From IMG/VR virus record IMGVR_UViG_3300040801_003693, positions 71,939 through 135,938 of that record: a DNA stretch of 64,000 nt. One strand, 5' to 3'. Below are positions 20,332 through 29,262 of the stretch, in pieces; the stretch's first letter is position 1, and each line of letters opens with the position of its first letter. The position numbers were made by a program, and so were the translations under genes. Under the pieces are notes generated by a model. It was not told the DNA's origin, ran no database searches, and was given only the letters and a program-made list of their open reading frames with translations. Origin of the DNA: a virus.

Positions 20332-20811
20332 TTAAGTATTAATTAATTCTAAATTAAATATTTCAGCACAAATATTACCAAGATATACTGGAGCATTTGG
20401 AGCTAATTCATATCTAAAGTATTTAGGATTAGTCTCAATCTTTCCATTCTTATTAAAGATTAAAGGCTTCCATACCACTTGATTTAATTGTGGTTGTTTA
20501 TTCTTGATTGTAATCTTGTCGTATTCAATAATATCAAATGAATGTGGATAGTCCCTTTCTCCTGGGAGATAAGGATAGTGATGAATCCATTTAGTATTAA
20601 GTGGATTTAGATTAAAATCATGAATAATTAAAGGTGTAATAAATTCTACTGAATTAGTAATGCTAGTTCCAGTATTTGAATCTGTCATAATAACAATTGT
20701 TTCAGATTCAAATTCTACTAGTTTTAATTGACAATAAGAATCCCAATTACCAAATCCATTTCCAAATCCTTTCCAATTATATTTTGTATTAACTAAAATG
20801 TTATATTCCAT
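20332..20811 (-). CDS. Hypothetical protein immediately downstream of the solitary CRISPR repeat
   Basis: 159-aa ORF with GTSITNSVE motif; ATG 38 nt after the repeat. Confidence 0.65.
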   Translation of the reverse strand: MEYNILVNTKYNWKGFGNGFGNWDSYCQLKLVEFESETIVIMTDSNTGTSITNSVEFITPLIIHDFNLNPLNTKWIHHYPYLPGERDYPHSFDIIEYDKITIKNKQPQLNQVVWKPLIFNKNGKIETNPKYFRYELAPNAPVYLGNICAEIFNLELINT

Positions 20812-20849: not shown

Positions 20850-20886
20850 GTTTCAATCCCTGATAGGGATTAGAATTAATTTCCAC
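20850..20886 (-). CRISPR. Solitary 37-nt cyanobacterial-type CRISPR repeat (no array)
   Basis: GTGGAAATTAATTCTAATCCCTATCAGGGATTGAAAC: AATCCCT/AGGGATT stem and ATTGAAAC 3' end; no second copy seen in the window. Confidence 0.8.
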
Positions 20887-20945
20887 GGGTAGTACTCGAT
20901 ATGAGAACATTGACCGAGCTTTGAAGCCGTGCGCCCCACGGACTT
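20887..20945 (-). promoter_or_regulatory. Putative repeat-proximal CRISPR leader
   Basis: On the leader side of the repeat; AGCTTTGAAG and CCACGGA at about 30 and 50 nt recall motifs of cyanobacterial leaders (from memory, not aligned). Confidence 0.35.
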
Positions 20946-21003
20946 TTTATCAAATTGTTTTTTGAAGTTGCAGGCTGCATTTCTGCATTTAATTGGATTA
21001 CAT

Positions 21004-21068
21004 TTCATCTCACACTTTTCATTTCGGGTAGGGTGTGAGACTTCCCGCCGAGAAAGTTAAAGTTTCAT
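21004..21068 (+). repeat. 65-nt hairpin repeat, copy 1 (IS200/IS605-family 3' end-like)
   Basis: TTCATCTCACAC...GTGTGAGACTTC...GAAAGTTAAAGTTTCAT; about 75% identical to 21897..21961. Confidence 0.7.
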
Positions 21069-21896: not shown

Positions 21897-21961
21897 TTCA
21901 TCCCAACACTTCTCTTACGGGTAAGTGTGGGACTTCTTACGATTGAAAGTTAAATTTTCAT
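21897..21961 (+). repeat. 65-nt hairpin repeat, copy 2 (IS200/IS605-family 3' end-like)
   Basis: TTCATCCCAACAC...GTGTGGGACTTC...GAAAGTTAAATTTTCAT; compensatory stem change relative to copy 1. Confidence 0.7.
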
Positions 21962-22029
21962 GGTGCTTTTCAATATTATATAGGTATAAAAAATAATAAT
22001 CAGAAAAAGATACAAAATGTAATATTTAA

Positions 22030-22190
22030 TCAGCCCCTAAGTATTTTTATTCCACTATCAAGTATAAAAATTCAGCATAAAATTCGCGGAGGGTTTTTAT
22101 TGCTTGATAGCTTAAATCCTTTCTCTATATACATTTGAGCCTCAACTCATAACAACTACGACTTAATACTTGCTCTTCCGCGAATTTGTT
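22030..22190 (-). promoter_or_regulatory. CRISPR leader-like region with 11-bp inverted repeat
   Basis: AAATTCGCGGA (22080..22090) and TCCGCGAATTT (22177..22187) directly downstream of the cas1-like gene. Confidence 0.45.
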
Positions 22191-22191
22191 T

Positions 22192-23163
22192 TTATCTTAA
22201 ATAAAAAGGATTGTACATTTGAGAGCCATCCTCACAAATATTTTTTATTTGCTGCACCCGGATAGAAATTGCATCAGAATAATTTACTTCCATCTTTGTA
22301 TTGGGATATTTAAATTTGTATTTTAATTTGTTGCTAAAAGATTGTGCTAATTTCTTTTGAATAATTTCAGGAAGTACATCCTCAGTGTATTCATTAAAAT
22401 CAGAAGCGCATATAGTTTTCAGATTGAATACTTTAATTAATATAGGATCGATTAGATAAGGCGACATTTCAAATTTAAGATCGGCAACTAATGCTCCACA
22501 TTTGTGCTTCTCACTATGCCTAAATAAGGATATTTCTTCACTGACATTATTAGCAATCAAAGTAATTCTTATTTGCTTTTCTAATAAACTTTCTAGAAAG
22601 ACAATACACATTTGTGCTATCGAATCTTTTCTCTTACCGTAATATTCGATATCATCTATAAAGAATTTTCCTAGTAAAGCATAATATTTTGCATGAATTA
22701 ATCCTAAGTACCCGTTGATTGAATCTATCCCTTTGCTTAATTGAATTTGCTGTAAACTGTAATTATAAAATATTTTAAATTGTTTTAATTCCTCTTCGCT
22801 AATAGAATTTCTATCACGATACTGTCTTCTTAAAAAGTTGTACCTTCTTTTCGTAACTAAAATTGATTGTTGCTTCACAATGTCTAATCGTAAAGCATTA
22901 TAGTTAATAGCATAACTATTAATTGCTTTTCCAAACTTATATATCCCCCCAGGAGAAGAGATAATTACAGTAATGTTCTTATCAATTAAAAGCTGTAATA
23001 CTCCAGAGCTAATACTTATATCTGAAGTATTTATACATAAGCAAACATTGTTTAAGTCTTCAATTGTTTCTAATATATATTCAGGATTAACATAGCCTGT
23101 TTCTAGTTCTGTACTGTCAAGAGATATTATTTTAGAGAATGGATAATGATTACTGCTATTCAA
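22192..23163 (-). CDS. cas1: Divergent Cas1 homologue, probably catalytically inactive
   Basis: Colinear with cyanobacterial Cas1: ISSGVLQLL, RLDIVK, SINGYLGL (EG becomes LG), FRH, ALVADLKFE, SDF, KLKYKFKYP, YSDAI, YNPFYLR. Confidence 0.75.
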   Translation of the reverse strand: MNSSNHYPFSKIISLDSTELETGYVNPEYILETIEDLNNVCLCINTSDISISSGVLQLLIDKNITVIISSPGGIYKFGKAINSYAINYNALRLDIVKQQSILVTKRRYNFLRRQYRDRNSISEEELKQFKIFYNYSLQQIQLSKGIDSINGYLGLIHAKYYALLGKFFIDDIEYYGKRKDSIAQMCIVFLESLLEKQIRITLIANNVSEEISLFRHSEKHKCGALVADLKFEMSPYLIDPILIKVFNLKTICASDFNEYTEDVLPEIIQKKLAQSFSNKLKYKFKYPNTKMEVNYSDAISIRVQQIKNICEDGSQMYNPFYLR

Positions 23164-23172
23164 ATTAATTTC

Positions 23173-23493
23173 CTAATTAACTATTTGAAACACTGCTGAA
23201 TAATTTAGAAGAAATTGCATTAAAGAATCTTGAGAACCAGCATAAAGATAGTTTCTATGTCCGGCTCTAGAAGGAACTTGTTTGGAAAAGATTATAAATT
23301 CATTAATTAAACCTAACTTTTGTTTATCTAATATATTTGAAATTAATACATGAGTAAAAGAATCTTCTCTTGTTTGATGTTCTCTACCAATGGCTATACC
23401 TTTATTATTATTTAACCAAGGTTCTGCATCTGTATAGTTGATAAACTTATATACTTTAATTTTATTGTTCATTTTTATAAACTGCTTTTCCAA
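23173..23493 (-). CDS. Hypothetical protein
   Basis: About 100-aa ORF just upstream of the cas1-like gene; no Cas2 YD motif evident. Confidence 0.5.
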   Translation of the reverse strand: MEKQFIKMNNKIKVYKFINYTDAEPWLNNNKGIAIGREHQTREDSFTHVLISNILDKQKLGLINEFIIFSKQVPSRAGHRNYLYAGSQDSLMQFLLNYSAVFQIVN

Positions 23494-23548: not shown

Positions 23549-23995
23549 TTAACTCCACGGATTGTTTTCTTCTAAATATCTTTCTATCTTAGTTTCTATT
23601 TCAGATTCCATTACATCCATGTGTCCATCAACATCTGCATACCATCCATGTTCGTTTAGTGTTTTTATTAATGCTTGAACTGCACGTGCCTTTGCTAATT
23701 TTACTCTTCCTTGAGGAGTTTTAAAATACTCCTCACGCTTCTTAGCTCTTTCTCTTTTTGCTCTCTCTGCTTCTTCTAATAATTGTTTAACCTTCTCTAC
23801 ATCACATAAGTAACCTGGGTCGTATCCCGCTCCTATTTCTTTTCCTTGTGCAGTATAACGTTTTCCGTTAGATAACTTCACCTGTCCTGACTTGGTTATA
23901 TTACTCACTATTCCTATCTTTGCTTTTATTCCTCTTCTATCGTTGTAGTAATAAATCCCTATCTCTTGTCCTAGTTTTAAGTTTGATGTGTTCAT
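23549..23995 (-). CDS. Hypothetical protein (N-terminal small beta-barrel-like domain)
   Basis: LKLGQEIGI...IVSNITKSGQVKL then a charged helix. Confidence 0.6.
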   Translation of the reverse strand: MNTSNLKLGQEIGIYYYNDRRGIKAKIGIVSNITKSGQVKLSNGKRYTAQGKEIGAGYDPGYLCDVEKVKQLLEEAERAKRERAKKREEYFKTPQGRVKLAKARAVQALIKTLNEHGWYADVDGHMDVMESEIETKIERYLEENNPWS

Positions 23996-25057: not shown

Positions 25058-25411
25058 ATGATTTTTTCAGTCTTTAAAGTTAATGGTAAGTTTTGTGTTT
25101 GTAATACAAGTGGTACTTTTATTTTTAATTTAATTAATAGAAATATTATTAAAGGGGAGAATATTTGCCTCGATTTCGATCGGGTCAAAATATTCTCCGC
25201 TGTCTTTTTTAATGCAGCAATAGGTAGATTATTTAAATTTCATTCTTCTGAAGTAATTGAAGACCGACTTAGCATTATTAATTTAGATGAGGATGCAATC
25301 CGTCTTTTGAATTTAGTTAAAAGAAATTCACAAAGATATTACACCGATGCTGAATATAGAGCAGCGGTAGATAAAGCCATAAATAATCATATACATGAAA
25401 CCTCAGAATGA
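25058..25411 (+). CDS. STAS-like DUF4325 protein
   Basis: GENICLDFDRVKIFSAVFFNAAIGRL motif. Confidence 0.75.
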   Translation: MIFSVFKVNGKFCVCNTSGTFIFNLINRNIIKGENICLDFDRVKIFSAVFFNAAIGRLFKFHSSEVIEDRLSIINLDEDAIRLLNLVKRNSQRYYTDAEYRAAVDKAINNHIHETSE

Positions 25412-25438: not shown

Positions 25439-26386
25439 TTATTTATATAATCCTTCCCTTGGGAGAGGATTGTACTTTAGAAGAATCTTTGCCCACTCTT
25501 TATTCAATTTAGCTCTAAGATATCTTTGAGGTCTAAGCTGAATATGCTCTTCAGAAATATAGTAGATATTAGTATAAGGTTTGAATGCCAAATCTTTAAA
25601 TTTATTATTAGTAAAGATTGGTTTACAATTTTCTCCTTCTGAATTTAGAAAACGAGTTTCATGAAATTCATTACGAACATCTTCTTTGTCTAATCGTATA
25701 CATTGCTGCTTTTTAATTACAGGTTTTAAGCCACGAGCTTTTCTGTAATTATTATCCAATCTTCTTTGAATGGTGGATGTGGAATATCCTGAATGCTTTG
25801 CAATATATTCTTGTGATGCTCCATATAGAAGGTTAGAAGAATTAACGTAAATAAATCTATCTGATAAAAAAAGTATCCGCTTGGATTTGCAGCAGAGTTT
25901 TTCAGCAGATAAAGTTTTTCGTATTAAATCTTTCTTCCCAACTGTCGCAGCATACAAACTTTTATCTTGCGCTCTAATAGCGTCAGCTTCAGTTGCTTTA
26001 AACTTTATATCTTTTAGTTCATCTACTCCTATTTCTGTTACTGCACCCAAGTTTTTAATTCCGTATCTAAGGCAGAGTTTGATTACGGAACAATAATAAA
26101 ATCTGTAATAACCTTTTCTTAACTTTATTACATTTCTAAATAGACCTAACCTTTCTGCAAATCTTATCCACCTACGAATTACCGAACACGATCTATCAAA
26201 TATTCTAGCTGCTTCATTAATCTTAATATCCGCATATCCACTTCCTGCTTCATCTAAAGCTTTCGTTAAATAGAATAGTTTAATTGCACTATGCCCTTCT
26301 AATTGGCTGTTGTAGGTGTTACAGCCAGACCATAAAGCTTGATTAACGAGAGAACTGTGGATATGTATATAAAGCAAAGCAACCAA
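25439..26386 (-). CDS. Basic protein with two HTH-like motifs (possible replication/regulatory protein)
   Basis: EAARIFDRSCSVIRRWI and QEYIAKHSGYSTSTIQRRL. Confidence 0.5.
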   Translation of the reverse strand: MVALLYIHIHSSLVNQALWSGCNTYNSQLEGHSAIKLFYLTKALDEAGSGYADIKINEAARIFDRSCSVIRRWIRFAERLGLFRNVIKLRKGYYRFYYCSVIKLCLRYGIKNLGAVTEIGVDELKDIKFKATEADAIRAQDKSLYAATVGKKDLIRKTLSAEKLCCKSKRILFLSDRFIYVNSSNLLYGASQEYIAKHSGYSTSTIQRRLDNNYRKARGLKPVIKKQQCIRLDKEDVRNEFHETRFLNSEGENCKPIFTNNKFKDLAFKPYTNIYYISEEHIQLRPQRYLRAKLNKEWAKILLKYNPLPREGLYK

Positions 26387-26539: not shown

Positions 26540-26722
26540 TCACCTTTTCGCAAAAGGATTAATGTCAGGCTTATTTTTCTCTACATAATCTTTCACAATC
26601 CCGTTTGCAATAGTGGACATTGATTCTTCTTTGATAGCGCAAATAAGTTTAAACTGTTGTTTTAAGTCTTTATCTATGTACACTGCTAGTTCCGCACTTC
26701 CTGGCGGGATATATTTTGGCAT
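26540..26722 (-). CDS. Ribbon-helix-helix (CopG/ParG-like) DNA-binding protein
   Basis: LAVYIDKDLKQQFKLICA...SMSTIANGIVKDYV. Confidence 0.7.
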   Translation of the reverse strand: MPKYIPPGSAELAVYIDKDLKQQFKLICAIKEESMSTIANGIVKDYVEKNKPDINPFAKR

Positions 26723-28735: not shown

Positions 28736-29262
28736 AAATTTAATTTAGATTTAAATGTAACAAATTTTACTTCTAAAAAACGAATAGCTTGTAGCAGAAA
28801 TCTTTTTATAGGGTTGACTTCCGCATCTAATTGCAAAGTCAAACTAATCAGTTGATCCGTAACATAGTTAATGTCTTTGAAGGAAACATTGTTTGAAACA
28901 TGGATTTTAGACTGAATTAATATAGCCTGATGGATTTTAGACTGAATTAATATAGCCTGTGCTTCTTTCAAATATTCCTTTTCAATTAAATCTAAATCTG
29001 GTAAATCGTTGTAATGACCGCAATCAAAACCAATCCACCATTTATGACTTAACAATTCATCCACTCCGGTGAACGTAATCCCACCGTGACAAATGTAATT
29101 TAACTCAAAATCATCTTTAGCATAAGCACTATACAGATTATCAATTCTGAGATAACCACAGAGATATCCCATCTCATTTTTACAGATGACATACTTAAAG
29201 CCACGGATAAATCCAGACTTAATTACTTTCGATGGCAAATAAACTTGGTGATACAGACACAT
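28729..29262 (-). CDS. Conserved phage hypothetical protein
   Basis: GYLCGY, HGGITF, WWIGFDCGH motifs. Confidence 0.65.
   Translation of the reverse strand: MCLYHQVYLPSKVIKSGFIRGFKYVICKNEMGYLCGYLRIDNLYSAYAKDDFELNYICHGGITFTGVDELLSHKWWIGFDCGHYNDLPDLDLIEKEYLKEAQAILIQSKIHQAILIQSKIHVSNNVSFKDINYVTDQLISLTLQLDAEVNPIKRFLLQAIRFLEVKFVTFKSKLNFQ
28900..28959. repeat. Perfect 30-bp tandem duplication, in frame
   Basis: ATGGATTTTAGACTGAATTAATATAGCCTG x2 (QAILIQSKIH x2). Confidence 0.9.

Follow-up and report, generated by a model that had tools for sequence, protein, structure and literature searches.

A phage-borne Cas1-fold protein without the canonical metal site, and its probable relatives beside CRISPR arrays of filamentous cyanobacteria

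Dead stand-alone Cas1 proteins are already known from methanogens: Cas1-solo group 1 of the Methanomicrobiales (Makarova 2013; Krupovic 2014, PMC4046053) is, by its published description, a natural and conserved set of archaeal Cas1 homologues in which the full catalytic set is absent, inherited vertically, unassociated with CRISPR loci and of unknown function. Among viral orphan cas genes, 358 of which were counted in IMG/VR, AcrIB3, AcrIB4 and AcrVIA2/2.1 are described as anti-CRISPRs (Katz et al., bioRxiv 10.1101/2023.06.24.545427); the same preprint cites viral Cas4 homologues that are said to curb the acquisition of spacers, and solitary repeat units are described as acting as RNA anti-CRISPRs, or Racr (PMC10651486). 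Here we analyze a Cas1-like gene of 323 codons at 22192..23163 (minus strand) in a 64,000-nucleotide stretch of viral DNA, referred to as the window, which corresponds to bases 71,939-135,938 of the 135,938-base IMG/VR record IMGVR_UViG_3300040801_003693 (CheckV completeness 78%). The phage nature of this DNA rests on the IMG/VR record and on a tail sheath gene (PHROG 30392, 607 bits) just upstream of the Cas1-like region. What the comparison with sequence databases adds to the methanogen proteins is a putative clade of array-adjoining dead Cas1 in cyanobacteria, together with the copy in this large phage, which we take to be one that infects cyanobacteria.

The open frame spans 326 codons with no internal stop, and the 323-residue open reading frame (ORF) within it begins at a TTG, with an AGGA Shine-Dalgarno sequence 8 nt 5′ of the start. 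Its product, the window protein, matches Pfam Cas_Cas1 (PF01867) over residues 43-263 with 44 bits against a cut-off of 22.3, which places it in the Cas1 superfamily and upholds the uninterrupted Cas1-like ORF seen in an earlier reading made from the letters alone (the sequence-only reading). The best subtype models are those for cyanobacterial Cas1d (NCBIfam 49.7 bits, PADLOC 55.7 bits). The score of 49.7 does not reach the Cas1d cut-off of 385 bits (TIGR04093), for which a cyanobacterial Cas1d scores 441.5 and a dead paralogue 139.5, and the 53.6 bits obtained with the generic NCBIfam cas1 model lie below its cut-off of 71.7. Structural superposition, proposed earlier as a check, also leads to Cas1: the AlphaFold2 model has a mean predicted local distance difference test score (pLDDT) of 77.5, all of its Foldseek matches listed for the PDB are Cas1 or casposase proteins (best E 1.4e-10), and comparison with the ESM Atlas (TM 0.79-0.81) supports the same fold. 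Both domains of that fold are present, the C-terminal alpha domain being well modelled and the N-terminal beta domain (residues 1-85) short and poorly modelled.

In an alignment to Synechocystis Cas1 (PDB 7cr6) the window protein has GYLG opposite GIEG, so that Leu153 (codon 22705..22707, minus strand) stands in place of the catalytic Glu of the G-x-E-G motif (E141 in the E. coli numbering of PMC4046053). Within the former active-site block, residues 214-234 (FRHSEKHKCGALVADLKFEMS; 22462..22524, minus strand), His216 and Asp228 are retained, and Phe231 lies opposite the Glu at the second acid position. The RRPPxDPxN loop is lost, a shorter stretch, GKRKDSIAQMC, being aligned with RRPPTDPVNAL. 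The sequence-only reading had described the same replacements, the lost loop and the surviving His, and the alignment agrees with it. Two of the four catalytic residues of an active Cas1 integrase are thus present. Because alanine at any one of E141, H208, D218 and D221 is reported to abolish the nuclease activity of E. coli Cas1 (Krupovic et al., PMC4046053), and two of these four residues are replaced here, the window protein is dead if judged by the known mechanism of Cas1. It is a full-length Cas1-fold protein that cannot work through the canonical metal site. Profile and fold place it in the Cas1 superfamily, and it is neither an active Cas1, nor Cas1d by score, nor a casposase.

The likeness to Cas1d of Synechocystis (PDB 7cr6/7cr8), the top subtype model, includes the same fold, colinear over approximately 280 residues, the retained His and first Asp, and a link to CRISPR repeats of the DR5 type. 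Unlike Cas1d, the window protein is phage-borne, has a short N-terminal domain and comes without a Cas2 or Cas4 partner. Specifically, neither Cas2 (PF09827) nor Cas4 (PF01930) gives a match at E≤1 in the whole record, and tblastn of eight type I-D Cas proteins, Cas2 included, found no match there either, in line with the earlier statement that the gene stands without Cas2. Casposases share a Cas1 fold without Cas2, and one of them, 6opm, is the second-best Foldseek match, but by the account in PMC4046053 they retain all four catalytic residues, two of which are lost in the window protein.

A word-index search of 5.8 billion proteins returned only the window protein itself, while phmmer against 1.84 billion representative proteins gave 59 matches. 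The best of these, P0002, is 39% identical and comes from a cyanobacterial metagenome-assembled genome, on a contig of 2.2 kb. After the self match, 8 of the 9 best phmmer matches are without the catalytic Glu and have the same defects; among all 59, the Glu is absent in 16 and present in 40, the other 3 being fragments without the region. We placed these proteins in a careful maximum-likelihood tree of 53 rows, which includes 19 of the 40 canonical representatives, 12 other loci and 6 of ten related genes from cyanobacterial genomes (described below). All 22 Glu-less rows (16 representatives and the 6 host genes) fall on one side of a single branch with support 100/99, and the window protein and P0002 are joined at 100/100, nested within a 19-row subset at 95/91. 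The Glu-less split also appears in a quick tree of 74 rows; both trees omit the fragments P0014, P0015 and P0055, and also P0060. The window protein has the features of the Glu-less clade: it lacks both the Glu of G-x-E-G and an acidic residue three positions past the Asp, and its RRPPxDPxN loop is shortened. Judged from sequence, it is likely to belong, as a divergent member, to a clade of dead, array-linked Cas1 proteins of filamentous cyanobacteria.

The array linkage comes from the cellular members. When 389 genomes of one cyanobacterial family were searched with a profile built from the core clade, 9 of them yielded ten full-length members in all, a count that leaves out three partial matches and four near 208 bits. 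All ten genes are without the Glu and without the RRPPxDPxN loop, and the clade is only 26-30% identical to neighbouring Cas1d. Eight of the ten loci have, within approximately 330 nt, a CRISPR array with a DR5-type repeat ending in ...TCCCTNNNAGGGATTGAAAC. In five of them the array lies immediately upstream and is co-oriented, with the likely start codon some 44-90 nt past the last repeat; in one a 36-repeat array lies downstream of the gene, past a gap of leader size; and in two the array is convergent with the dead Cas1 gene. At one locus a complete type I-D operon (Csc2, Csc1, Cas3′, Cas6, Cas4, Cas1d at 441.5 bits, Cas2) runs on into a leader and three repeats, behind which lies the dead Cas1. 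When the host loci were compared, no conserved protein neighbour was found beside the clade genes; the arrays alone recur. Of the gene pairs compared, 8 have dS 0.18-0.26, and for these the ratio of nonsynonymous to synonymous substitution rates (dN/dS) is 0.13-0.27; the remaining pairs are saturated or nearly identical. On these ratios the host clade genes are under purifying selection.

A search of plasmids found one intact and two fragmentary clade copies on Nostocales megaplasmids. Named members come from Anabaena, Scytonema, Nostoc and Okeania and are listed in databases as "CRISPR-associated endonuclease Cas1"; since plasmid copies and named proteins may overlap the loci of the genome sample, they were not counted as extra cases. 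The resemblance to Cas1-solo group 1 lies in a natural Cas1 homologue with incomplete catalytic residues. By its published description that group differs from the clade here, whose members are cyanobacterial, few and scattered (9 of 389 genomes), in part carried on plasmids, and in most cases next to arrays. In the literature searched, which did not extend to Hou et al. (2019, RNA Biol), to Table S3 of Katz et al. or to the supplements of Krupovic et al., we found no account of a naturally dead Cas1 from a cyanobacterium, from beside an array or from a phage. The clade of array-adjoining dead Cas1 in filamentous cyanobacteria is apparently undescribed so far, and that its genes sit at arrays is the more unexpected aspect of the finding. 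It touches the question of how multicellular cyanobacteria maintain and load many arrays without nearby cas genes, for which a conserved, selected and catalytically dead Cas1 right at the arrays is a concrete candidate factor.

Two further features of the host loci were seen in passing. A group II intron reverse transcriptase (RVT_1, RVT_N, GIIM) lies in or beside arrays flanking the dead Cas1 at L094 (7721-9235, minus strand) and L092 (11849-13363, minus strand). Two host leaders (L092 9560-9760 and L089 10780-10860) have a common motif, ACCTTGAAAACCAAATA, just 5′ of the first repeat, and the phage is without this motif.

The position of the phage gene in this clade bears on how its active site was lost. 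The sequence-only reading saw an apparently catalytically dead Cas1 in a phage. The non-catalytic nature and the retained fold stand; because the gene nests in a clade whose every examined member is already without the same residues, the active site was very probably not lost in the phage. An active host Cas1 could still be imagined to have been captured and then inactivated in the phage, giving a dominant-negative poison of the host Cas1-Cas2 integrase. The Cas1d subtype models being the best, the kept fold with catalytic residues gone, and the known route from Cas proteins to anti-CRISPRs (described in bioRxiv 10.1101/2023.06.24.545427) would all suit such an origin. It is opposed by the cellular members, all of which, as far as examined, are without the same residues and loop, and by the low identity of the clade to neighbouring Cas1d. 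The N-terminal domain adds a further objection. In Cas1 this domain makes the dimer and Cas2 contacts, so that the part of the window protein expected to touch Cas2 and a partner Cas1 is the least conserved. We consider inactivation within the phage very improbable.

The window protein and P0002 are most alike in the RHSEKH...DLKFE block, and a cryptic active enzyme might be sought in a metal site rebuilt from His216, Glu218, His220, Asp228 and Glu232, all of which P0002 shares. However, Glu218 and His220 are absent from other clade members, some of which are without the His too, and in the window protein hydrophobic residues occupy the positions of both the canonical Glu and the second acid. 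We therefore regard a rebuilt enzyme as extremely improbable.

Relatives of the window protein were also looked for in phages, metagenomes and further cyanobacterial genomes. None was found among 50,697 GenBank phage records, whether by DNA or by protein; the query P0004 matched three human-gut phage contigs at 23-27% identity. Patterns from profile A3 matched 98 stretches of IMG/VR, none of them a relative, and IMG/VR scans with P0013 and P0007 as well as scans of metagenomes yielded no relatives. An IMG/VR scan with A4 gave one locus, L037, a canonical active-type Cas1 beside tail genes at a contig end, which was set aside as irrelevant. In 401 phylum-level cyanobacterial genomes, profile A2 matched 135 genomes at E≤1e-20, and the 34 ORFs examined comprise 33 canonical Cas1 proteins and one degenerate one; P0001 matched 28 of the same 401 genomes (best 50.6 bits), all 31 ORFs from all 30 loci being canonical. 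In 401 order-level genomes A3 matched 8 (best 70.9 bits, all canonical) and A4 none at E≤1e-68. In the P0001 and A3 searches, the subclade of the window protein and P0002 did not turn up in any of the sampled cellular genomes. The degenerate protein found with A2 (L006; G001:C14:55747-59739, in a Rivularia-type genome) has no G-x-E-G and an altered loop. It lies approximately 1.3 kb from a reverse transcriptase-associated Cas1 fusion, is sister to that neighbour in the tree, elsewhere from the Glu-less clade, and is thus an independent case.

The phage copy itself has the marks of a gene that has been kept. None of 20,000 shuffles at its own AT content was free of stops, with a mean of 28.7 stops each, and its remaining five frames carry 16-40 stops. 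The record is AT-rich (G+C 27-38% per 2-kb interval), and the G+C content at third codon positions (GC3) of the gene is 0.228, compared with a phage mean of 0.233 ± 0.042 (52 long frames) and 0.34-0.39 in the host clade genes. Because its GC3 is phage-like, the gene is an old resident whose frame stayed open. Identity to P0002, counted in 30-residue intervals, peaks at 21/30 over residues 211-240, the former His/Asp pocket, and falls to 6-9/30 in the N-terminus, a pattern not expected from decay. The earlier argument that retention of the frame speaks for selection is borne out by the shuffles and by the base composition, and we are confident that this is a real protein under selection.

These data also bear on another history, in which the gene arrived with a fragment of a host CRISPR locus as a passenger and is still open but useless to the phage and heading for decay. 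The phage gene would then be ordinary, and the host clade would still be worth attention. Such a relic would fit the single relative at 39% identity, the failure to find any in GenBank phage records or IMG/VR, the weak TTG start and the short N-terminal domain modelled with low confidence; moreover, two of the three plasmid copies of the clade are fragments, so the family does decay. It does not fit the shuffles, the phage-like GC3, which requires long residence with the frame open, or the patterned identity to P0002, and a Shine-Dalgarno sequence is present in a layout that suggests coupling to the upstream ORF. On balance a relic seems rather unlikely.

The island also holds a solitary CRISPR repeat (20850..20886, minus strand), 1.3 kb downstream of the Cas1-like gene and on the same strand. 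The lone repeat noticed in the letters is genuine by the CRISPR-DR5 model, which matches these 37 nt with 45.3 bits (gathering score 40); the record holds no further copy, even with up to 10 of 37 mismatches allowed, and no spacer. Its 3′ 24-25 nt are identical to the repeats of arrays flanking the host clade members. A genome scan found the exact 37-nt repeat nowhere, and a relaxed pattern matched one Rivularia contig. A set of 475 spacers from host arrays gave only chance matches of 13-17 nt to the phage and hence no link to a host. In having one CRISPR-like repeat and no spacers near candidate anti-defence genes, the phage resembles the Racr cases as described, which however concern a repeat rather than a protein and for which no Cas1-like partner is mentioned in the published account (PMC10651486).

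The same repeat might suggest that the protein serves a CRISPR element of the phage's own, marking for the host integrase, or stabilising, either the solitary repeat or a mini-array that once existed or may yet form. Host clade members do abut arrays, gene and repeat are on one strand, and cyanophage N-1 is described as having a cas-less array processed by host Cas6 (bioRxiv 10.1101/2020.04.14.041012). The phage, however, has a single repeat and no spacer, two unrelated genes separate it from the Cas1-like gene, and its position, across the end of a small ORF and with another gene beginning 38 nt further on, suggests use at the RNA level instead. We find service to such an element quite unlikely.

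Directly after the Cas1-like gene lies a 290-nt non-coding gap (21902..22191, minus strand), in which a long-range inverted repeat (ATTCGCGGA...TCCGCGAAT) precedes a U run. Its predicted fold is no better than those of shuffles (z −0.31). There are 22 promoter-like sites against 23.3 in shuffles, no excess, and six terminator-like sites against 1.9 expected, none of them directly after the Cas1-like gene.

The explanation that we tentatively favour is that a phage lineage acquired an array-linked Cas1 that was already non-catalytic, and perhaps a repeat along with it. The capture would have been long enough ago for a phage-like composition to develop, and the gene would have been kept since. 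The protein may keep a non-catalytic Cas1 activity, either recognition of CRISPR leader/repeat DNA or docking on host Cas1, Cas2 or Cas4, and the phage might use it to disturb spacer uptake by, or use of, host DR5-type arrays, most plausibly spacer uptake; the solitary repeat beside the gene may serve as an RNA decoy. Taken whole, this captured dead array-linked Cas1 turned on host CRISPR is a possibility that we would rank below an even chance, and a CRISPR-directed, phage-serving function is, on our analysis, similarly tentative; a dominant-negative or leader-binding action is conjecture. We find it unlikely that the bolder form holds, in which filamentous cyanobacteria have dedicated dead Cas1 proteins that read leader/repeat DNA or cap the integrase so as to manage their many cas-less arrays, and the phage copy would be the first Cas1-derived inhibitor of spacer acquisition with an RNA decoy repeat. 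With the phage copy in an island with a solitary repeat, the idea of a Cas1-based anti-CRISPR becomes testable in Anabaena/Nostoc (type I-D adaptation, Cas6 processing).

Several observations weigh against this explanation. Except for P0002, the clade members are only 19-24% identical to the window protein, both it and P0002 are on long branches, and the separate degeneration of the Rivularia-type protein means that loss can recur, so that the grouping could partly reflect convergent loss. With one relative among approximately 15 billion proteins, conservation across phages is not demonstrable. The N-terminal domain is some 15-25 residues shorter than in relatives and has pLDDT 32-63. The array association is suggestive, not proven, because the eight array-linked loci amount to only three sequence lineages, and two of the ten host loci are without an array (one a 20-kb region, one a 3.9-kb contig). 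Where host arrays are mostly within ~330 nt of the gene, the phage repeat is 1.3 kb away. When the leaders and gene-array gaps of the ten host loci were compared with 20.2-24.4 kb of the phage, nothing was alike except the repeat, so the leader-like DNA of the sequence-only reading has no counterpart in these loci. No RNA run is listed as containing the phage stretch; 4 DNA runs in 2 studies contain it.

The two host loci without arrays would also be expected if the Cas1 fold had been reused outside CRISPR, as a structure-specific DNA binder in phage replication, recombination or repair, or as a scaffold. The dead Cas1-solo group 1 of methanogens, published as having no CRISPR link (PMC4046053), offers a precedent, and the gene does lie in a minus-strand accessory island among genes of unknown function. 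With eight of the ten host loci linked to arrays and a matching repeat within the same phage island, a role of this kind appears improbable.

If the explanation that we favour is correct, the gene would extend what is described for orphan viral cas genes. It resembles them as a viral cas homologue without a cas operon or array alongside, in a phage record from the same IMG/VR database, but the tested cases described derive from interference proteins (Cas5/Cas8-type subunits, Cas3), and in the text of the Katz et al. preprint, outside its figure and Table S3, we saw no Cas1 case (bioRxiv 10.1101/2023.06.24.545427). That survey is described as using tblastn at 1e-4; because tblastn of one Cas1d against the phage contig finds nothing even at 1e-3, the survey may have missed this gene. 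We found no anti-CRISPR acting through Cas1 in the literature searched. Viral Cas4 homologues keep the nuclease fold with its motifs. As described in the source cited above, they are like the window protein in being virus-borne proteins of the adaptation module that are thought to disturb adaptation, and unlike it in belonging to a different protein family.

The Cas1-like gene belongs to a minus-strand island at 20.3-24.0 kb that sits amid plus-strand tail genes. In the order of the minus strand the island comprises a 148-residue ORF, a 106-residue ORF, the Cas1-like ORF, the 290-nt gap, two small genes, a 51-residue ORF, the repeat and a 159-residue ORF. The first gene of the run, the 148-residue ORF (23549..23995, minus strand), has a weak match to a PHROG of unknown function. 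The 106-residue ORF (23173..23493, minus strand) lies directly upstream of the Cas1-like gene and is without a family match. Translational coupling of the two is likely because the stop of the former overlaps the AGGA of the latter. The possibility that this ORF is Cas2 was rejected: it has no Pfam, PHROG or PADLOC match, and its look-alikes in the ESM Atlas are below 0.85 and unrelated. The two genes are in one frame, with one TAG and three codons between them. That they form a single gene read through the TAG was also rejected, the shared frame being a 1-in-3 chance; TAG ends 12 of 96 long frames of the record, and the start of P0002 coincides with that of the window protein.

Around the repeat, the Cys-rich 51-residue ORF (20853-21008, minus strand) follows the hairpin-plus-ribosome-binding-site element usual in this phage and terminates inside the repeat; it may be a true gene or no more than a transcribed stretch leading into the repeat. 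The 159-residue ORF (20332-20811, minus strand) begins 38 nt past the repeat, and PADLOC weakly matches it to Shedu SduA in the N-terminal region (profile positions 18-94 of 360, E 1.5e-6). Possibly it encodes a shortened mimic of a defence protein and has the CRISPR repeat as its mRNA leader. Similar hairpins, GAAGTC(C/T)CACAC...GTGTG(A/G)G, occur at approximately 21010-21050 and 21905-21945 (minus strand), each directly 5′ of an ATG.

Beyond the island lie genes for a DUF4325 STAS-like protein (25058-25411, plus strand), a 315-residue protein with helix-turn-helix matches below cut-off (25439-26386, minus strand) and a 60-residue ribbon-helix-helix-like ORF (26540-26722, minus strand), which are possible regulators of accessory genes. 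A 30-nt unit is perfectly duplicated in tandem at 28900-28959. At the far end of the window, 62406-63915 holds a HEARO (OMEGA-type) RNA (128.8 bits) followed directly by a 425-residue RRXRR+HNH protein, which together are an IscB-type RNA-guided nuclease pair in the phage.

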